Source: a virus
Lineage: Duplodnaviria > Heunggongvirae > Uroviricota > Caudoviricetes
DNA length: 45,749 nucleotides
Virus record (IMG/VR): IMGVR_UViG_2534681762_000010
Reading direction: 5' to 3' (one strand)
Under the pieces are notes generated by a model. That model was not told the DNA's origin. It saw only the letters and a list, made by a program, of their open reading frames with translations, and searched no databases. Each line of letters starts with the position of its first letter. Position 1 is the stretch's first letter. The translations under genes and the position numbers were made by a program. Positions 7,488 through 44,122 of this stretch are shown piece after piece.

Positions 7488-10400
7488 TCAGCTGATACTG
7501 ATGCCTGCGGTGGCTTTCTTCATCACCACAACCAGCAAATCGCTGATACTTGCTGTGGGATACCAGTCATTTACCAGCCATGCTGACACCGAAAACTCCA
7601 GCGTCATGTGGCCGCGACCAGCTGGCATATCAATAACACCACTGTAAATCAGCGTATTATCCAGCGCGGTATGGTTATAAATTTCAGCACCGTTTTTCCG
7701 TACTATCAGGCGGCATGAGGAGTAGATATCAGTATGATCTTGCTCATGTTTAGCGCCACTGAATGCCACCGCCGGGATAACAATTTGCCGGTCAAACGGC
7801 TGATCGTCATAAACCCTGACGGTAATGGTCCCTGATGGCCACCGCTCCGGTGCACGGGAGTCCCGGGGGAAAGCCTTACCCACTGTTTTGACAATATCAC
7901 CTTCAATCTGGTTGGCTGACAGTTTCCCCTTAATCTGACAGTTCTCATTAATCGTGACATTGTTGAGCGTCCCGGCGTTCGCATTCACACTGCCACTGAT
8001 ATCTGCATTTTTAGCGGTCAGCTTTCCGTCCGGTGTCAGGGAAAATGCCGGAGGATTACCGCCGCTGGTAATGGTGGGAGCCGTCAGGCGTTTGAGGAAC
8101 ACGTCGTTCATGAATATCTGGTTGCCCTGCGCCACAAACATCGGCGTTTCATTCCCGTTTGCCGGGTCAATAAACGCGATACGGTTAGCGGCAACCAGAA
8201 ACTGGCTCAGTTTGCCTTCCTCTGTATCCTCCATGCTGAGGCCAAGTCCCGCGACATAATGTTTGCCGTCTTTGGTCTGCTCAATTTTGACAGCCCACAT
8301 GGCATTCCATTTATCGTTGGCATCCTTCCACTCTTTCGAAAACTCATCCAGTCTGCTGGCGTTATCCTCCGTCAGGTCGACTTTTTCCAGCAACTCCTTG
8401 CCGAGATGAGATTCGGTTATCTTGCCTTTGAAAAAATCCAGGTAACCTTCCGCATCATCGCTCGCCCGACCGACAGCCTCCACGAATGCCGATTTGCCAA
8501 CGGTGTTCACACTGCGAACGTAAAAATAATAATCATGGCCCGGCCTGATATTGATACTGGCAGCTATCCAGTACAGCGCCGTGCCAAGATAGCGGGCTGT
8601 GGTTTCAACCTGCCTGATATCAGCAATCCGTTTTTCCGAGAACCAGAACTCAAACTGTACCGTCGGGTCATAAACCGCAAGATGCGGCGTGGCGGTTATC
8701 TGAAAATAGCCCGGTGTCAGCTCAATCCGAGACGGCGCTGCCGGTGCGGCAATCCGGAACGATACCGATGCCGGATCGCCCTGCTGTCCCCACGCATTTA
8801 CCGCCCGGACTGTCAGCCTGTAGTTCCCCAGCGCCAGTTGCGTGAAGCGGTATGTGGTTTCCGTCGTCCGGGCCGTGCTGACCAGCCGCTCACTGCCGTC
8901 ATCCGCTGCCACGGTCAGGCGAAGCATAAAGCTCACCCCCTTCACCACCTTCGGCGTGTCCCAGCGGGCCAGCACCTGATATTCCCCGCTGTCTGCGGAG
9001 ACTTCGGCAGTCAGGTGCTGTACCGCTGGCGGCGTGACACCATTCACCGTGCCGCTCTGGTCGCTGTCAAAGTGCGCCCCGTTATCCACGATGGCCTCTT
9101 TTTCAGGTACATGCTGCACGGCAGTGATGGCATACGTGCCGTCGTCGTTCTCACGGATACTCACGCAGCGGAACAGGCGCTGGCGCAGCGTCGGCAGCTT
9201 CAGCCCCCACACGCTGTATTCTGCAACGCCGTCAGGAACCCGGCTCACTTTTACCTTCACGCCGTCGGTGACGGACTGAACCTCCACGCTGACCGGATTG
9301 CCATTTCCGTCAACCAGGCTTATCAGCGTGGTGCCGGAGGATGGCAGCGTGATTTCACGGTCGAGCGTCAGCGTCCGGGTCTGGCTGTTCACCGCCAGCA
9401 CGCGACCACCGGTGCTGATACCGGCATAGTCATCATCACAGATTTCAATAACATCGCCCGGCACATGGCGAAGCCCTTCCGCACCCACGCTGAAATCCAC
9501 GGTCTGCGTTTCCAGCAGTTCCGTTTTAATCAGCCACAGCCCGGCGCGGTGTGCCTGCCCCCGACTGGTACAACCAAAGGCATCCATCTTCGTGACATTA
9601 CGACCGTAACGGGCAATGGCCTGCGTATCTTCAACAAGCTCTGTCGCCGTCTCCCAGCCGTTGTTCGGGTCAATCCAGTTCACCTCAACGGCATTATGGC
9701 GGTCCTTCAGGGCGCTGAAGCTGTAGCGGAACGGCGCGCCATCATCCGGCATCACCACATTACTGCGGTTATAGGTCCACACCTTATCCGACTGTCGGTC
9801 CTGCACGAACGTCAGCGTCTGCCCGTTCCATACCGGCATACAGCGCATCGCCGAGCAGAAATCACTGAGCACATCCCACGCCTTGCGCTGTGTGGTCAGG
9901 TAAGCGTTACAGGTGATGCGCGGCTCCGTGCCGCCAAAGCCGTCCGGCACCGACTGATCGCAATTCTGGCCGATGACATACAGCGCCCATTTATCCACAT
10001 CCGCCGCACCAAGACGTTTCCCCATGCCGTAGCGCGGGTGGGTCAGCATATCCCACAGACACCAGGCCATATTGTTGCTGTATGCTGGCTTAAACGTTCC
10101 GTCCCAGATACCGCTGTATTGCCGCGTCTGCGGGTTATAGTTCGACGGCACCTGCAGAATGCGCCCGCGAAGATGATAATTACGGCTCACCTGCTGGCTG
10201 CCGAACTGCTCCGAGTCCACCTGCACACCGACCAGTGCCGTGTTCGGGTAGCACTGTTTCACATCGATGATTTCGGTGTATGATGACCAGAGCGTTTTGT
10301 TCTGCAGCTGGTCTGTGGTGCTGTCCGGCGTCATCCTGCGCATCCGGATATTAAACGGGCGCGGCGGCAGGTTATCCACCACCACCGAGGCCAGATACTG

Positions 10401-29883: not shown

Positions 29884-30154
29884 AATGTTACCGTAATATG
29901 TGAGTATCCATCGACTAGACACTAAGCAAAAAAGCTCCCGAAGGAGCCTTCATTTTCACTTTCTTAAATCTAACGACAGATGGCTAACATTTAAGTATTG
30001 TGAAATATTATCAAATGTAATCATCATTGATTTACAAAAGATACATTTTGCCCCGAAAGGATTTCTGTCAGAAACATCAAAAGATGATGTTCTATACTGA
30101 GAACCATGGCAACACGGGCATCTGAAGTGAATATGGTTTGTAATATTTTCTACC

Positions 30155-30367
30155 TCAAAGTGCCACTACATGAACAGCTGCAGGGCCTTTAGGTCCGTTC
30201 TCAATACCAAATTCGACTTCCTGATTCTCAGTTAACGTTTTGAAATCGTTGCTCTGAATAGCTGAGAAATGCACAAACACATCTTTGCTACCATCTTTCG
30301 GCGTGATGAAACCAAAACCTTTTTCAGGGTTAAACCATTTCACTAAACCAGTCATTTTGTTAGACAT
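30155..30367 (-). CDS. cspI: cold-shock protein (CspI/CspB-like)
   Basis: [23 protein letters not shown]... with RNP motifs; long AT-rich 5' UTR upstream. Confidence 0.75.
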
Positions 30368-30730
30368 CATTATTACCTTTTGAAGAAGTTAGCCCTTGGG
30401 CAGAATGGTCCGAAAAAAAATATCAGAGAGAAAAACCAACAAGGAAATCTCAAGAGGTACAAATAATAAAATTATAACAATGACTGCTTCAGATAATTTT
30501 GTAACAAACCAGAACACCATTAACGCATGATTAACCAACCATAGCAAGGATTACTTTTGTAAAGAAAAACACACGAATGAAACAATAGCTTTATTTATTA
30601 ATAAAACGTGTCATTCTGTCTAATGACCTTTTATCTTACCCTTAAGATTTCAAGGATTTTGACTCATGGAAGAGTCCTTTTTATTTAAATTTCACATTCA
30701 GCGCTAAAAATAATCCGATTTAATATTAAT

Positions 30731-33571: not shown

Positions 33572-34045
33572 ACAGCGAATCAGATCAAATAAAACGCACA
33601 TTTGTTAACATTTACACAAAGTCTGCGTGGGATATTCTGAAAGAATATCCATAATGTGGAGAGAATCTATTGAAGTGCATGGTGCCGGGTGCCTCCCGGT
33701 GAATTCAGTACCAGCACCTGAATCCGCGATTATCCCATATACCTACTCGCTGATTGCCCCTCCGCACAGGGGGATTCACCATGCCAGTTTCTTTTAACAA
33801 ACTCCCCGCAAACCAGAGAACAGTCAACCGCCTGAATTGTGAAGTATTTAAAAATTTCTCCCGCTAACTGATACCCGGCTAACAGTCTGGCGTTTTCTTT
33901 TTCAGCAACGGGAAAGCAACAACCACCACACCCGCCACCAGCACACCGTCAGCCAGCACTGACATTATCCGGCTGCTGCAATGCCATTCACAAAAACAGT
34001 AAGCAATCACTTTTTACCGTAACAGGTGATAATCCAGATATGTAT

Positions 34046-34509: not shown

Positions 34510-34586
34510 TGGCGCGCTGTACTGGATTCGAACCAGTGACCGATTGCTTAGAAGGCAATTGCTCTGTCCGGCTGAGCTAACAACGC
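34510..34586 (-). tRNA. tRNA-Arg (anticodon UCU)
   Basis: GCGTTGTTAGCTCAGCCGGACAGAGCAATTGCCTTCTAAGCAATCGGTCACTGGTTCGAATCCAGTACAGCGCGCCA folds as cloverleaf; anticodon loop CTTCTAA; 3' CCA encoded. Confidence 0.9.
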
Positions 34587-34686: not shown

Positions 34687-34762
34687 TGGTGGCCCTTGCT
34701 GGATTTGAACCAGCGACCTGGCGATTATGAGTCGCTCGCTCTCACCACTGAGCTAAAGGGCC
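34687..34762 (-). tRNA. tRNA with anticodon CAU, most like tRNA-Ile2 (lysidine type; ileX/ileZ-like), alternatively tRNA-Met
   Basis: GGCCCTTTAGCTCAGTGGTGAGAGCGAGCGACTCATAATCGCCAGGTCGCTGGTTCAAATCCAGCAAGGGCCACCA; close to E. coli ileX. Confidence 0.9.
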
Positions 34763-34905: not shown

Positions 34906-35727
34906 TTACCAAGTTACCTTTTTTAACTGCCGCTCAGCCCATGCTTCTTCAATATCAAACCGGGTCACCAGCGCATCATAGAATTTCTTAACTGTTTTTT
35001 CCCATGACGCGCGTGTTATCTGGTTTGTCACCTCGCATATAGCATTAAATGCCTCCGTTGATGGTAGTCTTTCATAGCCACGACCACCACAACGCTGGCA
35101 GTCTCTGATAACAGGCATACCACGTTTTACCGACTCTTCACGGTGAATGGCGACACCACGCCCACGGCAATCCTTACAGGCGGTGGAAACCTCACCCTTT
35201 CCGCCACACTCCGGACAGGCAACTTTTACCACCTCCCTGACTTTTTTCCATTCTTCCCAGTAAGACGGATACACACCTTTCGTACACTTTGCCCATACCG
35301 GCGGCTTACCATCCGGATACTGGACCTTGTTTGTAAAAACTACGCTTTCAATAAATTTTTCCCCATCGCAACAAGGGCACTGCTTTTTACTCGCTGCGCT
35401 GCGGGCATAATCCTCAAAAGCGTACGAAGCCATAATGCGCATCACTACCGGTTTTATTTCTGCCGGAAGTTTTCTCAACGCCGCCACACGATCGCACCGA
35501 CTGAGTGCATAATCTGCCAGTAATTCTGTTGCCCGCGCCCTGTCATTCATACTGATGCCCATTTTCCCCAGGAACGCAGAAAACCCCATCTCAGCCCGAT
35601 TCTGTGTCATGCCCTGCGCGGCCATCACATCAGTGATACTCAGCGCATCTTTTGACGTTGAAGCCGATGCATCGGTCAGGCAAGGGGATTTTGGGGAGTA
35701 GTATTTCGGTAAATCTTCCAGTTTCAT
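34906..35727 (-). CDS. late antiterminator Q (zinc-finger type with four CxxCxGxG repeats)
   Basis: 273 aa; position between rusA and pR'/late genes; CPCCDGEK, CPECGGKG, CKDCRGRG, CQRCGGRG. Confidence 0.75.
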   Translation of the reverse strand: MKLEDLPKYYSPKSPCLTDASASTSKDALSITDVMAAQGMTQNRAEMGFSAFLGKMGISMNDRARATELLADYALSRCDRVAALRKLPAEIKPVVMRIMASYAFEDYARSAASKKQCPCCDGEKFIESVVFTNKVQYPDGKPPVWAKCTKGVYPSYWEEWKKVREVVKVACPECGGKGEVSTACKDCRGRGVAIHREESVKRGMPVIRDCQRCGGRGYERLPSTEAFNAICEVTNQITRASWEKTVKKFYDALVTRFDIEEAWAERQLKKVTW

Positions 35728-37898: not shown

Positions 37899-38054
37899 TT
37901 ACTCCTCAGGTTCGTAGACTGTGAAGACAGCGACCTCCGTCTGGCCGGTTCGGATTCGTACCTCGCAGAGGTCTTTCCTCGTTACCAGTGCCGTCACTAT
38001 GACGGTTAAACAGATGACGATCAGGGCGATTAACATCGCCTTTTGCTGCTTCAT
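37899..38054 (-). CDS. hokD: Hok-family type I toxin (HokD/RelF-like); in-frame upstream extension to 38111 is mok-like
   Basis: MKQQKAMLIALIVICLTVIVTALVTRKDLCEVRIRTGQTEVAVFTVYEPEE; AAGGAG SD. Confidence 0.85.
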   Translation of the reverse strand: MKQQKAMLIALIVICLTVIVTALVTRKDLCEVRIRTGQTEVAVFTVYEPEE

Positions 38055-38640
38055 AGCCTGCTTCTCCTTGCCTTTCGGCACGTAAGAGGCTAACCTAGAT
38101 TTGCCGTTCATAGATTGAGCCTCAGATTAATGTTAAGCGTCTTGCAGGACGCGTAATGTTAACTGGGGCTTTTCTCTATCTGCCTTTGGTGTTCATGCCT
38201 GAGACAGATAGCCTCAAGCACCCGCAGCCATTCTACTTAACTCCCGTCACCTGGCCAATATAAAATCAATCAGAAAGGCGATCCATAAGAACAACAGCAA
38301 GACAATAAATTGCCATTACAGCTGCAATAGCCAGCGCACATTTGAGAACCAGCACGACAACCTCCTGTATTGGACGTACACCAGTCCTGATAAATATGAG
38401 GCTCTCTCATCATTGATGAGATACAACTATTGGGTATAGTTTCTGTGATTTTGTTCTGTAGAAATGGAACACAACAACCAGTAACCACCAGCGATTCTTT
38501 AAATACGCCAAATCCGACGCAAGCTAACCTTCTAGTCCGCTTTGGGCGAAGACCGGACGTTCGATAGGTGTGAACTAGTAACTTTAAAAACATTTAATTA
38601 CCAGTAAAAAAACAAGAATATACTATCACTTTTCCAATTT

Positions 38641-39666
38641 TTAATTACCCTTATCAATTTTAAGAAATACATTTCCAATCTCATCAGAATAATCCTGTAT
38701 TATTTTTGAAATGACGGCATGATCAATGGTTGGTTTTAAGAATAAAAGTGTCACAGTAATCTGCATCAAACTAATAGCAGTAGCATGGGCTGGATCAGCC
38801 ATTCCTGAATCACTTTGCCCGATCAATAATATATCATCACCAGTTTCACAGAGACCAAGCCTATTTCTCATTGCCTTGGAACCGGTGTGTACATTCTGAC
38901 TCGCCCACTTATAATAAGGGCGCATGTGTTCTAACTGAACATCTTTCTCAATAGCTCCAAACCCCACTTTATTATGGTTAGGGAAAATATAAGATGCCCA
39001 CCCATAATTATCTGCATATTTTTTGCCGTATTTTTTTATTAATAGATCAAATTGAACTTTACACTCAGCTATTTCTTCAATAGTTGGACCTTTTGCTTCT
39101 AACCGGTGCTCGTACTTTTTGTGTTCCAACATTCCAGTATATGAATCAACCACTTCATGGTAGTAAAAGCGCTCAGCACACTCTTTTCCATGCTTTGCTA
39201 TAAACATAGCTGTGGCTGCTACCTCATGAAGTGCTCGCCATCTCGCTTGGGCAGCATCTGCAAATCCATTCTTTAAGAGACACAAAATTTCGTTGGCGAT
39301 GTGGCAAGCTCTTGCGTGATGCCGAACGACTAAATCAAAAACCACATCCTCTTCAGAGGCAGCTTGTGGTCTATAAGAACGATTGAACTCTTCACCGGAC
39401 TCCGTGCATATCACTATAAGTGTTTCGAGCAAATCAAAAGCCTCTGCCCATCTTGAAATATTTCTCTCAACAAATTCATCACAAAGAGAACGATGTTCTC
39501 TAAGCATTGCATTGGCCGAGCCAATAAGAGATTTTTTAACGACAATGGCTATTTTGGGAATTAGGTTATTAATTTCTTTTTCGATATCAGCGTCACCAGA
39601 TAAATCAAGTCTCTCTTTTAAAAGGCTGTCTATGTGCTCAAGCAAAATATTATGAAAAGTATCCAT
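38641..39666 (-). CDS. orphan 341-aa protein of unknown function in low-GC island (candidate accessory/defence gene)
   Basis: single long ORF, AT-rich codon usage unlike flanking phage genes; first ATG 39666 (track start 39678 is TTG); no recognisable catalytic motif beyond two R-x4-6-H spacings. Confidence 0.6.
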   Translation of the reverse strand: MDTFHNILLEHIDSLLKERLDLSGDADIEKEINNLIPKIAIVVKKSLIGSANAMLREHRSLCDEFVERNISRWAEAFDLLETLIVICTESGEEFNRSYRPQAASEEDVVFDLVVRHHARACHIANEILCLLKNGFADAAQARWRALHEVAATAMFIAKHGKECAERFYYHEVVDSYTGMLEHKKYEHRLEAKGPTIEEIAECKVQFDLLIKKYGKKYADNYGWASYIFPNHNKVGFGAIEKDVQLEHMRPYYKWASQNVHTGSKAMRNRLGLCETGDDILLIGQSDSGMADPAHATAISLMQITVTLLFLKPTIDHAVISKIIQDYSDEIGNVFLKIDKGN

Positions 39667-39893
39667 GTCATATCTCAATAAGTTTTAAATCCATGTGGCA
39701 CACCCATAATATAAAAATAAACAGCATGCCAGTCTAAGTCTGGCTATTTGTATATCATATCACCTGAAACATTGACAGATGTAACCCACCAAAATATTAT
39801 CAATGACCACTCTTGGCACAAAGCGAACAACCACGCTAGCTCTACCTTGTGCCATGAAAATGTCAATGCATATCTGAACTAATGCCCTTTAAT

Positions 39894-40319
39894 CTAGTAA
39901 CGTCTAAAATACCTAACATTTCCCTGATAAAATGCCATAATGCGCTGCATAACTTCGCTCTTCCGGCACTCGCGACAGATTATGTTTAGACAACTATCGT
40001 AGCGACGTATTTCTCCGTCAGGTAATGACCAGATAAGGTCCGGATCAACCGCAGATGGTTTCTTCAGCTTTGCCCTTGAGAGCTTTTTACGGGCATTTTG
40101 CCAGTCCTTACGCGCCTGTTCAGACGGGAATAACCCGTAACCAGAGTTGTATACATCGCCACTGGCAACCAGCTCTCTGGCCAGAACGCTCATCAGATAT
40201 CTTGTTGCCCCAGTTTTAGTTTCCAGTTGTCGTAACGTCTCGCGCCCACTCTGGCGTACGAGTTCAACAACCTGCCCTTTAATTTTTTCCCGCTCTTCTT
40301 GTGTAAAAACTTTTGCCAC
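39894..40319 (-). CDS. hypothetical replication-region protein with C-terminal Cys cluster
   Basis: 141 aa downstream of O-like gene where P/DnaC-like loaders usually sit; not an AAA+ protein. Confidence 0.45.
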   Translation of the reverse strand: MAKVFTQEEREKIKGQVVELVRQSGRETLRQLETKTGATRYLMSVLARELVASGDVYNSGYGLFPSEQARKDWQNARKKLSRAKLKKPSAVDPDLIWSLPDGEIRRYDSCLNIICRECRKSEVMQRIMAFYQGNVRYFRRY

Positions 40320-40359: not shown

Positions 40360-41337
40360 TTACCCCCTGAAGCCCGGCGGAATTTCAGTGTCCGGTTCAG
40401 AAATGTGATTCACGCAACGCTGCGCAGGCGAACGCCCCAGGCGGATAACCAGTTCATCCCATTTTTCCCGGAGTTTTGCCGGACTCATGATGTTTTTTAC
40501 CCAGAACGAATCCCGCTGGAGACGCCCAAACATTTCACAAATTTGTCTGTGAGTTCTGCCATCCAGCATCCGCATTGTGCGAACGTCATTGGCCCATGCT
40601 GTCCAGTTGGGTTCTTTCGGTCTAGTGATCTCGCCATCATCGCTGGCCGCCTGCTCGTAAAGACTCACGATTCGTCCCCAGATCCACTGTGCGCACACCA
40701 AATCTTCCTGACTTCCCCACTGGCGTTTTTTCGCACTGAACACAACCGCGTCAGGGTGTCGGGTTAAAAAATCCTGTTCAGCCGTCTGCGGGTCCGGTTG
40801 CGAAGCGTCCGGACAAGAAGATCTTTTATCTGACGGATCAGGTTTTAATACTGACGGATCGGGGTCAATCATCGCCCCCCTAATCGGCAGTTTTTTATCA
40901 ACAGTTGATCCATCAAAATTTGACGGGTCAACCGTTGAGGGGTCAATATTTGACGGGTCAACTGTTAACGGGTCATTTTTTGCCGGGCTAATTTTTCTTT
41001 TCGGTTTATATGACTCACGCGCCGCCGCCGCAGCTGCTTCGAGTTTTTCCACATTAAGCCGATAGATATTGCTTACATTACGCCCACCGACCTTACGCTC
41101 TTCCTTCGTCAGCCAGCCCTCTTTCGCCAGTTCTGCAATAGCCGATTTCACTGTGGATTCACTTCTTGCACCGATCTGACGCCGGATAGTTTCAATGGCA
41201 GGCCATGACACGCCCTCGTCATTGCTGTAGTCTGCAAGACGGGCCATAACCGCCACCCTGGATAAGATCATGCCGGTGAAGGCGCACCCTTCCCAGACAA
41301 GACCATGAAGCTTGCTGCTCATAAAACCCCCGAACAC
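40360..41337 (-). CDS. replication initiator (lambda O-like) with iteron-encoded linker
   Basis: N-terminal winged-helix-like domain, repeated DPSTVDPSN linker encoded by DNA iterons, C-terminal domain. Confidence 0.7.
   Translation of the reverse strand: MFGGFMSSKLHGLVWEGCAFTGMILSRVAVMARLADYSNDEGVSWPAIETIRRQIGARSESTVKSAIAELAKEGWLTKEERKVGGRNVSNIYRLNVEKLEAAAAAARESYKPKRKISPAKNDPLTVDPSNIDPSTVDPSNFDGSTVDKKLPIRGAMIDPDPSVLKPDPSDKRSSCPDASQPDPQTAEQDFLTRHPDAVVFSAKKRQWGSQEDLVCAQWIWGRIVSLYEQAASDDGEITRPKEPNWTAWANDVRTMRMLDGRTHRQICEMFGRLQRDSFWVKNIMSPAKLREKWDELVIRLGRSPAQRCVNHISEPDTEIPPGFRG
40921..40995 (-). repeat. origin iterons: four to five tandem 15-bp repeats TGACGGGTCAAYYGT inside the initiator gene
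   Basis: tgacgggtcaaccgt / tgaggggtcaatatt / tgacgggtcaactgt / taacgggtcattttt / tgccgggctaatttt; further copies at 40831 and 40852. Confidence 0.6.
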
Positions 41338-41344
41338 CGTGCTT

Positions 41345-41770
41345 TTAGTGCATCACCACAGCATTCCCTGCCGGGCCGCCGCGATTCATCTGGTCATACA
41401 AAACAACCGCTGACGCAACAAAATCATCGACATCCTTCACCAGCCGATCCCTCCGTTCGACGATCTCACGGTAATATTCAGAACTGTGGCTGCGCATACG
41501 GGCCACCAGCAAAGGCGGCATCGCCTTTTCGATCGCCGGTAACAGAGCCTGCATTTTTTCAACAGCATCAGGGGTGTCTTTATCCAGCCAACGGAAAATT
41601 TTCTGGGTATTACGGGCCAGGGCTTCCGGATGGCTGTCGTCGTACAGTTCAGGGAACGTCATCCCCAGTTCGAAATAAGTCCGGGCTATTTCAGCTGCAG
41701 GAACTTTCTCACCATCAGGGTATGCCCAGGCATTCATCGCCATGCGGATGTGCTCATGTTTGATTTTCAT
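41345..41770 (-). CDS. YdaT-like protein (Rac-type early-right gene)
   Basis: 141 aa, MKIKHEHIRMAMNAW...; occupies the cII position after the Cro-like gene. Confidence 0.55.
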   Translation of the reverse strand: MKIKHEHIRMAMNAWAYPDGEKVPAAEIARTYFELGMTFPELYDDSHPEALARNTQKIFRWLDKDTPDAVEKMQALLPAIEKAMPPLLVARMRSHSSEYYREIVERRDRLVKDVDDFVASAVVLYDQMNRGGPAGNAVVMH

Positions 41771-42077
41771 GAATCATTTGCCTCTTGATGCTTCGGGTAT
41801 GATCGTTTTCGTCATTTGGTTGCTTCATCGACATATTCTGCGAATAACATGACGAGCGTCGTAAGTATGTCCAATCAACATCAGGACGAAGTTCTTCACA
41901 CAGGACACCACCTTTTGTTGCTCGTTCAATCGCAGGACATCTCTCAGCAGGTAACTGACGTACACCTTTGATCCATTGATTTACGCTTGGAGGAGATACA
42001 CCTAAAAGCCTAGCCATTGCTGATTGCCCACCGACAACAGCACAAGCTCGTTTGAATGAATAGTTATCTTTTTTCAT
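41754..42077 (-). CDS. Cro-like HTH regulator (YdaS-like)
   Basis: HTH AMARLLGVSPPSVNQW; ATG 42077 with GGAG SD; divergent from repressor gene. Confidence 0.65.
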   Translation of the reverse strand: MKKDNYSFKRACAVVGGQSAMARLLGVSPPSVNQWIKGVRQLPAERCPAIERATKGGVLCEELRPDVDWTYLRRSSCYSQNMSMKQPNDENDHTRSIKRQMIHENQT

Positions 42078-42104
42078 CGAATGAACTCCAAAAAACACGC
42101 AACA

Positions 42105-42173
42105 ATATTAGGCTTAGCCTAATGAAATTGTCAATAGGCTATGCCTAATACATCGAGAGTAGGGATTGCCTAA
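42105..42173 (+). promoter_or_regulatory. right operator/promoter region: three dyad operators plus pR
   Basis: TTAGGCTTAGCCTAA (42108-42122), ATAGGCTATGCCTAA (42134-42148), GTAGGGATTGCCTAA (42159-42173), centres about 25 bp apart; minus-strand TTGACA (42129-42134) - 18 bp - TAATAT (42105-42110). Confidence 0.6.
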
Positions 42174-42201: not shown

Positions 42202-42678
42202 ATGCTTAGTGGTAAAGACTTAGGCCGAGCGATAGAGCAGGCCATTAACAAAAAAATTGCATCAGGAGCCGTCAAATCAAAGGCGGAAATCGCACGTCAT
42301 TTCAAAGTCCAACCACCATCAATCCATGACTGGATTAAGAAAGGTTCGATAAGTAAAGACAAACTTCCAGAACTATGGCGTTTCTTTTCTGATGTGGTTG
42401 GTCCAGAGCATTGGGGGCTTAACGAATACCCCATACCAACCCCATCCACTTCAGATACAAAAAGTGAACTTTTAGACATAAACAGCCTTTATCAAGCCGC
42501 CTCTGATGAAAAAAGAGCAATTGTGGCTTTCATCTTATCTGGAAATGCTACGGAGCCTAGTTGGGTTGATCATGACGTTCGCGCCTACATTGCCGCAATG
42601 GAAATGAAGGTAGCTAACTATCTGAAAAATCAAGAATCAAAACGGAAAAGCCAGAACATCACCAAGACAGGAACTTAA
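42202..42678 (+). CDS. prophage repressor (XRE-family HTH, RacR-like)
   Basis: 158 aa, HTH KAEIARHFKVQPPSIHDWIKKG; flanked by operator clusters on both sides; AGGAG SD. Confidence 0.75.
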   Translation: MLSGKDLGRAIEQAINKKIASGAVKSKAEIARHFKVQPPSIHDWIKKGSISKDKLPELWRFFSDVVGPEHWGLNEYPIPTPSTSDTKSELLDINSLYQAASDEKRAIVAFILSGNATEPSWVDHDVRAYIAAMEMKVANYLKNQESKRKSQNITKTGT

Positions 42679-43481: not shown

Positions 43482-43734
43482 GAGAATTAATTACAGACTT
43501 AACATGCTCTTTCTCATGATTGAAGCTCTCATGATTGAAAGTGCCGGGTTGAAGCGAGTCGATATAATCAACAAGACTCTGTCGTACGACTTCATTTTTA
43601 TCCATAACAGATGCAAGAAATGAAATTGCTAAAAGAGTTATATCACTACGCGCCGCAGCATGTTGCAATGCTTTATCAAAATTATTAATCTGGCGTATCA
43701 GGGAGTTAATGATTTCATCATTTTCAGTCGACAT
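43459..43734 (-). CDS. hypothetical protein, convergent with and overlapping the preceding gene
   Basis: 91 aa from ATG 43734 with strong AGGAGGG SD; AT-rich. Confidence 0.45.
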   Translation of the reverse strand: MSTENDEIINSLIRQINNFDKALQHAAARSDITLLAISFLASVMDKNEVVRQSLVDYIDSLQPGTFNHESFNHEKEHVKSVINSLILNQKN

Positions 43735-44069: not shown

Positions 44070-44122
44070 TTTCTGGTGACGTTTGGCGGTATCAGTTTTA
44101 CTCCGTGACTGCTCTGCCGCCC
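44070..44122 (+). ncRNA. dicF: DicF small RNA (ftsZ translation inhibitor)
   Basis: TTTCTGGTGACGTTTGGCGGTATCAGTTTTACTCCGTGACTGCTCTGCCGCCC followed by TTTTT, matching the 53-nt DicF sequence as I recall it; located just upstream of dicB as in Qin. Confidence 0.7.

Follow-up and report, generated by a model that had tools for sequence, protein, structure and literature searches.

Short tandem repeats that lie within a gene raise a simple question: are they maintained for the protein they encode, or for what they are as DNA? We address this question for an array of 15-bp repeats in a 45,749-nucleotide stretch of viral DNA (Caudoviricetes; IMG/VR record IMGVR_UViG_2534681762_000010), referred to in its entirety as the window. 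The array is situated in a gene resembling lambda O, the product of which we call the initiator. On the evidence set out below it is very probable that the repeats form part of an ori-lambda-type vegetative replication origin of a lambdoid prophage, that this origin resides inside its own initiator gene, and that it is built with a new type of iteron.

Tandem repeats within the initiator gene

The array consists of six in-phase units (the original prediction had counted four to five), each comprising a 12-bp near-palindrome, TTGACGGGTCAA on the plus strand with core TGA-N4-TCA, plus a variable spacer of 3 bp. Units begin at 40905, 40920, 40935, 40950, 40965 and 40980, with 2, 0, 1, 0, 2 and 3 mismatches, respectively; that at 40905 reads, with its two mismatches, on the minus strand. 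Tandem Repeats Finder recovers the repeats at 40898-40996 both with a period of 15 (5.2 copies, 71% matches) and with a period of 30 (2.5 copies, 84% matches, score 101), the longer period being the stronger because spacers differ between alternate units; a repeat search returned five 30-nt copies at an exact spacing of 15 bp. On both strands of the whole window the only other sites with two or fewer mismatches to the unit are at 8159 and 14327. Five such sites in exact 15-bp register over some 75 bp are far beyond chance. Between 37.5 and 45.7 kb there is no second direct-repeat family of three or more copies, and neither alternative iteron clusters nor terminators were found in the early region. 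A scan of the origin region for IHF sites found none, and an Rfam scan showed no RNA element in or adjoining it.

Translation of the array gives NDPLTVDPSNIDPSTVDPSNFDGSTVDKK: as first proposed, the O-like gene houses the repeats, which at the same time code for a repetitive linker. In an AlphaFold2 model built on a 59-sequence alignment, the linker is predicted to be disordered, and the disordered part coincides exactly with that coded by the repeats together with the GATC boxes described below. Disorder is to be expected here, because the sequence of the linker would be set by the needs of the DNA.

Additional copies had been placed 70-90 bp upstream of the array. Two are indeed present, at 40830 and 40851, but in the reading direction of the gene they stand downstream, and they constitute a distinct variant that contains a Dam site (GATC boxes 1 and 2). 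GATC occurs at 40820, 40836, 40857 and 40907, and no other 100-bp stretch of the window holds four. The probable unwinding region, with an A+T content of 60-65% in 20-bp windows, takes in the sequence between and beyond the two boxes. The order of parts on the coding strand is six repeats, spacer, and GATCCGTCAGTATTAAAACCTGATCCGTCAGATAAAAGATCTTCTTGTCC.

DnaA boxes were considered as a further component and rejected. Candidate 9-mers at 41045-41053 (TTTTCCACA) and 40895-40903 (TTATCAACA; one mismatch) flank the array; since they are not conserved in homologues they carry no weight and are probably fortuitous. That at 41045 falls in conserved codons that relatives write differently, and the enrichment of DnaA-like sequences is small.

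Evidence for constraint at the level of DNA

Homologues were collected by scanning one genome per species, which gave 80 Enterobacterales loci (L008-L087), 75 with full-length genes. A period-15 array is present in about 65 of the 75, at approximately nucleotides 295-400 of the coding sequence, in 2 to 8.5 copies with the consensus TCTGACGCGTCAAAA or TTGACCCGTCAA; the invariant part is the TGA-N4-TCA core. In the Asp-x-Ser motif of the linker, serine is encoded by TCA in 365 of 400 instances (91%), against 445 of 2,212 serine codons (20%) in the rest of these genes (Fisher p = 2e-170). At all 73 of the 73 loci it is the linker that has the greater TCA fraction. The motif is free to vary at its middle codon (Pro, Ala, Thr or Gly). 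The conserved block, (T/C)TGA-N4-TCA-A, is dyad-symmetric and spans codon boundaries. The codon bias leads us to conclude that the sequence is constrained as DNA and not solely as protein, a pattern in keeping with selection that acts on DNA, as the target of a dimeric protein, rather than on a peptide. No association that would indicate compensatory change within units was detected between the third base of the Asp codon and that of the middle codon (p = 0.31).

Conservation extends beyond the repeats. Immediately 3' of the array, a single-copy segment of 87 nt shows conservation of 80% or more at many of its third codon positions, with the pattern CAGAATCTGG.GG.GATCCGT.AGTAA.TTCAA.A...GATCCATCA, and this persists even where the C-terminal domain comes from another family. 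At GATC box 1, GGGGATCCGTCAGTAAA is at least 80% conserved in 41 aligned loci, third codon positions included. Two or more GATC sites are kept within the segment in 64 of 72 loci, and two of the four sites in the window are conserved family-wide. With two exceptions, discussed below, two subfamilies of N-terminal domain pair with repeats of either TTGA or CTGA type. Among E. coli alleles the initiator varies in length by multiples of five amino acids (aa), which is one repeat unit. As a separate observation, a gene for an adenine methylase of the Dam type (PF05869) or the MT-A70 type is found no more than 3 kb downstream of the initiator in 37 of 74 related loci.

Organization of the replication module and proposed mechanism

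The features of the module, and of those parts of the window mentioned later, are listed in Table 1. The start of the initiator gene is most likely the ATG at 41322, which is used in RefSeq and in all aligned homologues, rather than a GTG at 41337. By Foldseek the N-terminal domain resembles dimeric winged helices of the MarR, PadR and ArsR kind (probability 1.0, E about 1e-2). Upstream, a divergent repressor-like gene that matched no family occupies 42202-42678, and the pR-like promoter would drive cro, ydaT, the initiator gene and the origin.

Table 1. Positions of features in the window (nucleotides) or in the initiator (aa), with their basis.
Feature	Position	Strand	Basis or remark
cspA-type thermoregulator leader	30094-30525	-	
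STnc100 small RNA	33623-33813	-	
tRNA gene	34513-34586	-	
tRNA gene	34690-34762	-	
DUF977 / LygF / 'Ren-like' gene (141 aa)	39894-40319	-	Pfam DUF977, E 4.8e-29; phrog_142
Initiator gene (320 aa)	40360-41322	-	best PHROG match phrog_391, 'replication initiation O-like', E 2.3e-115; Pfam HTH_36; AlphaFold2 domain layout
Initiator, N-terminal winged-helix domain (HTH_36)	aa 1-105		Pfam; AlphaFold2
Initiator, disordered linker	aa 107-175		AlphaFold2, predicted local distance difference test below 50
Initiator, lambda-O-type helical C-terminal domain	aa 181-297		AlphaFold2; alignments to lambda O and phi80 gp15
Initiator, DnaT-like tail	aa 300-320		AlphaFold2 (aa 298-320 predicted disordered)
Codons of the C-terminal tail	40360-40422	-	RCVNHISEPDTEIPPGFRG; corresponds to the final 21 residues of E. 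coli DnaT
Probable unwinding region	40815-40850		A/T-rich GTTTTAATA in the gap separating the boxes, AGATCTTTTAT past box 2
GATC box 2, CTGACGGATCAG (coding strand CTGATCCGTCAG)	40830-40841		iteron variant; 21 bp from box 1
GATC box 1, CTGACGGATCGG (coding strand CCGATCCGTCAG)	40851-40862		iteron variant with Dam site
Spacer, array to GATC boxes	40863-40904		G/C-rich stretch; half-iteron GGGGTCAA (40861-40868); DnaA-box-like 9-mer TTATCAACA
Iteron array, six in-phase 15-bp units	40905-40991		Tandem Repeats Finder, pattern search, repeat search
YdaT-like (CII-like) gene	41345-41770	-	Pfam and PHROG matches; transcribed toward the origin
YdaS/Cro-like gene	41754-42098	-	Pfam and PHROG matches; transcribed toward the origin
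pR-like promoter, TTGACA-18-TAATAT	42105-42134	-	consensus scan, 10 of 12 positions; consensus match only

If this arrangement functions as an origin, then early transcription from the pR-like promoter would supply the initiator, whose winged-helix domain, of a kind that binds palindromes as a dimer, would recognise the near-palindromic iterons. Dimers filling the six iterons and the two GATC boxes would create an O-some-like complex capable of melting the A/T-rich stretch at about 40815-40850, whereupon the C-terminal domain would recruit the DnaB helicase. Because there is no P gene, delivery would probably proceed via the DnaT-like tail to a host factor, either DnaC-DnaB or PriA; elsewhere, a prophage that has a DnaC paralogue could use that protein as the partner of the tail. 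Firing may, in addition, be coupled to Dam methylation and SeqA through the conserved GATC sites.

Helicase loading and the DnaT-like tail

The window contains no P-like or DnaC-like gene 3' of the initiator, in agreement with the original prediction. That prediction had also described the 141-aa product of the next gene as a Cys-cluster protein; a domain search instead identifies DUF977, in the place that corresponds to lambda ren; the protein is no helicase loader either. A zinc-finger reading was rejected: among relatives 88-94% identical, only one of the three cysteines is invariant and the other two vary. The N-terminal region of the DUF977 protein is DNA-binding-like (phrog_2391, E 1.1e-5).

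The same initiator is found in more than one setting. In an O157:H7 prophage a near-identical protein (318 of 320 aa) is followed by a DnaC paralogue (NCBIfam DnaC, E 3.5e-89). Across complete E. coli genomes the initiator is joined to a DnaC-like gene in 1243 and directly to DUF977 in 1853. Absence of a loader is thus a property of this gene arrangement and not of the initiator.

Of the 21 residues in the tail of the initiator, RCVNHISEPDTEIPPGFRG, 15 are identical in the C terminus of E. coli DnaT (PDB 2ru8, 6aep, 9zbt), and the tail has the conserved form ...SEPDxxIPPGFRG. Similarity is confined to this end: of the NCBIfam DnaT model, positions 159-179 alone align with the initiator (16.8 bits, against a cutoff of 201), which leaves out the N-terminal oligomerisation domain of DnaT, and the initiator does not show the three-helix domain with which the C-terminal part of DnaT binds single-stranded DNA. 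A combination of HTH_36 with the DnaT C-terminal motif, as seen here, has been reported for DopC, a domesticated O-like protein (PMC5509034). The last 68 bp of coding sequence at the 3' end also occur on otherwise different initiators, annotated 'phage replisome organizer'.

Tails were compared with partner genes lying within 3 kb at those cross-species loci, 74 in number, that allowed classification. A tail of the form ...DW..G..L (compare ...NTDWIYGVDL in lambda O and ...NTDWAYGVIR in phi80) occurs at seven loci, all seven with a P-like gene and none with a DnaC-like gene; the GFRG (DnaT-like) type occurs at 42, none with a gene of either kind. From this distribution we infer that the tail may select the route to the helicase, the DnaT type making use of a host factor. 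A more specific proposal, which we advance tentatively and consider more apt to fail than to hold, is that the DnaT-type tail is a portable peptide that allows an initiator of lambda O type to load the host helicase without a phage loader, through the host partner of DnaT itself (DnaC-DnaB or PriA); it would replace the P-linked ...NTDW(I/A)YGV tail, and the GATC iterons and nearby methylases would possibly add control of firing by methylation. According to a structural study of the preprimosome published in 2026, how DnaT recruits DnaB/DnaC remains unknown, and the study does not state which DnaT residues contact PriA (PMC13377028).

Mosaicism and occurrence

Phages mEp460, Tritos, Evi and HannyBb share DNA with the window from DUF977 as far as the border of the origin core, at about 40827. 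In the two that were examined past this joint, mEp460 and Tritos, both the N-terminal domain and the repeats, at the same position in the linker, are unrelated. The location of the joint implies that N-terminal domain and repeats move as one exchangeable specificity module, just as classical lambdoid phages exchange the two as a unit. All four are viable phages that possess the same C-terminal half and DUF977 with no loader gene. The initiator allele itself is widespread: at 99% identity or above it is present in 1371 of 5426 complete E. coli genomes, including O157:H7, O103 and ST131, and the region 40700-41400, which covers the iterons and the N-terminal domain, has an identical or near-identical copy in about 1370.

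Alternative explanations

It is conceivable that the repeats matter as protein only. The Asp-, Pro- and Ser-rich linker would then be a flexible segment that changes by slippage, the likeness of the units as DNA would be a by-product of duplication or gene conversion, and the origin would lie elsewhere. Predicted disorder, allele lengths that change in five-residue steps, and units that are more alike within a locus than across loci, as concerted evolution gives, are all in keeping with such a view. It has difficulty, however, with the choice of TCA for serine at all 73 loci while the middle amino acid is free, with a palindromic block that ignores codon boundaries, and with third-position conservation in a segment that is single-copy; moreover, the early region offers no other repeat cluster, and lambda and phi80 carry proven or annotated sites at the corresponding place. 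We regard a purely protein-level role as very unlikely. A constraint on DNA is, on the other hand, evidence of binding by something and not of initiation, and true binding sites might serve autoregulation, control of copy number by titration or handcuffing, binding of the DUF977, YdaT-like or repressor protein, or a roadblock to read-through. Plasmid iterons have control functions too, and the DUF977 protein, given its DNA-binding-like region and the linkage of its gene to the initiator in 1853 E. coli genomes, would be a candidate. Yet it is the N-terminal domain, not DUF977, that the array accompanies: relatives of the phage SfIV type and all 74 classified loci keep the array with no DUF977 match in the next two open reading frames, and repeat subtype follows N-domain subtype. 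Parts are also ordered and positioned as in the lambda and phi80 origins, with A/T-rich sequence, if only short, in the corresponding place, and control does not preclude initiation. Binding without any part in initiation is accordingly an unlikely explanation. That the locus is a relic in a defective prophage, an origin that ceased to fire when its loader was deleted, we find barely credible. A DnaC-like gene does follow the same initiator in 1243 E. coli genomes and is missing here, and the array includes two degenerate units among its six (with 2-3 mismatches); but the junction without a loader is the commoner one, it occurs in isolated, plaque-forming phages, no P-like and no DnaC-like gene lies within 3 kb at any of the 42 cross-species loci with a GFRG tail, the initiator reading frame is intact, and its iteron and N-terminal region is all but invariant among some 1370 genomes.

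The interpretation that we favor, an ori-lambda-type origin within the initiator gene, has difficulties of its own. A pitch of 15 bp sets neighboring sites on nearly opposite faces of the helix, and the complex would therefore not be a simple copy of the O-some. The A/T-rich stretches, at 40815-40850 and 40889-40904, are short (9-16 nt, 60-75% A+T), as compared with about 40 bp in lambda. Tandem units homogenise by slippage, which means that they are not independent data points in the codon test, and the covariation of N-terminal domain with repeat type is broken by loci L023 and L028. In Shiga-toxin (Stx) phages, replication of the non-lambdoid Eru types has been called unstudied (PMC8951638). 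Our confidence is high and not complete because of the short A/T-rich part, a geometry of pitch unlike that of lambda, and support that is drawn from sequence.

Other features of the window

DicF antisense RNA is encoded at 44071-44122 on the plus strand (Rfam, 76.7 bits), on which ground the window is assigned to a dicB-dicF immunity region like those of Qin and Rac. The stretch that separates dicF from the repressor-like gene holds a perfect direct repeat of 13 bp, TCTCATGATTGAA, present twice at 43512-43539 with starts 15 bp apart. On the other side of the replication module, a match to sok antitoxin RNA at 38049-38223 on the minus strand (Rfam, 110 bits) indicates a hok/sok-type toxin-antitoxin locus just beyond it. 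Between this locus and DUF977 is a gene at 38641-39678 (minus strand) for a 345-aa DUF5677 protein (phrog_27456), which may be a moron or a defence gene. A late-regulatory region near the Q antiterminator gene (34906-35727) contains the thermoregulator leader, the small RNA and the two tRNA genes of Table 1.

Significance

An initiator allele that roughly one complete E. coli genome in four carries is of more than local interest, and related modules that combine YdaT-like and HTH_36 proteins occur in Stx phages, where replication drives toxin output. Knowledge of the origin and its sites could be put to use in mapping induction by read depth, in constructing minimal replicons and in predicting classes of replication specificity. 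The link between type of tail and P gene supplies a testable rule for the choice of helicase route by lambdoid initiators; if the proposal of a portable DnaT-type tail is true, the tail would provide a straightforward genetic means of probing the handover of the primosome by DnaT to DnaB/DnaC.

Comparison with known origins

For lambda, phi80 and Stx phages it is textbook knowledge that the origin sits within the gene of the initiator and that its iterons code for a linker (PMC7466680). For the initiator family studied here, SfIV-type phages included, we found no described origin in the searchable literature. Weigel and Seitz are said to have classified such modules in 2006.

The parallel with ori-lambda drawn in the original prediction holds up in several respects. 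In its C-terminal domain the initiator shares homology with lambda O (39% identity over 119 aa, E 5e-26) and with phi80 gp15 (36% identity, E 5e-26). In lambda the origin likewise falls within the part of O that encodes the inter-domain linker, and annotated repeats occupy the same inter-domain position; O lies 3' of cro and cII, as the initiator lies 3' of their analogues. No pairwise similarity to lambda O was found for the N-terminal domain of the initiator; HTH_36 has been reported, on the basis of HHpred, as common to it and lambda O (PMC5509034). The lambda record shows four 18-bp iterons at a pitch of 20-24 bp, compared with six 12-bp sites at 15 bp in the window, and then an A/T-rich stretch ending in GAAAAGATTATTCGTCAG; the A/T-rich part of the window is much shorter and is interrupted by the two GATC boxes. 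A P gene follows O in lambda, where the O tail is ...NTDWIYGVDL; in the window no P gene follows and the tail is DnaT-like.

In the phi80 record four gp15-binding palindromes are located at the same relative position in gene 15. These are sites of 15-16 bp at a pitch of 21 bp, of unrelated sequence (TTCCCGAAAACGGGAA), followed by GTATTAAAAGATCTTCGTCC, which is close to GTATTAAAACC...ATAAAAGATCTTCTTGTCC in the window. Phi80 has a P-like protein, gp14 (Pfam Phage_lambda_P), and a P-type tail, neither of which the window possesses. In the reading direction all three loci run from dyad-symmetric repeats to A/T-rich sequence, short in the window, and then to the motif AAAAGAT(C/T)T, the form AAAAGATCTTC(T/G)T in the window being shared with phi80 (GTATTAAAAGATCTTCGTCC) and lambda (GAAAAGATTATTCGTC).

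Replication proteins of the Shigella phages SfIV and SfII and of their relatives Kati, SKA5 and PhiR49 belong to the same family as the initiator from end to end; identity is about 62% for SfIV and, over the N-terminal 95 aa, 66% for all. The YfdO type of the K-12 prophage CPS-53 belongs with the SfIV and SfII relatives. Where checked, in SfIV and vB_EcoM-689R6, a period-15 array (TCTGACCCGTCAAAA, 4.3 copies) is in the same place, together with the same two GATC boxes, a GFRG tail and no loader. Repeats of the SfIV type, which go with the other N-domain subfamily, are flanked by CTGA/TCAAAA in place of TTGA/TCAA, and the downstream gene is PerC/YfdN-like in place of DUF977.

Other systems offer partial likenesses. 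Compared by description only, the Stx-phage types Eru8, Eru11 and Eru13 have a YdaT-like gene beside HTH_36 near cI, as does the window; Eru types are defined by gene content, and iterons are unmentioned (PMC8951638). Among the closest known systems we also count oriL and G38P of Bacillus phage SPP1 and the DnaD-like replisome organisers. An origin of the iteron-plasmid Rep kind (RepA, pi, TrfA) was rejected: it would be expected to have iterons of some 17-22 bp at a pitch of about 22 bp outside rep, with DnaA boxes and a WH1-WH2 protein, whereas the window has a 15-bp pitch, sites inside the open reading frame, and an initiator made up of a single winged helix and a lambda-O-type C-terminal domain. 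Placing the origin within the gene for its initiator is a principle familiar since lambda and phi80; what is distinctive of the putative origin of the window is the 15-bp pitch of its 12-bp palindromes, the two conserved iteron variants with Dam sites at the probable unwinding site, and an initiator with a DnaT-like tail and no P.

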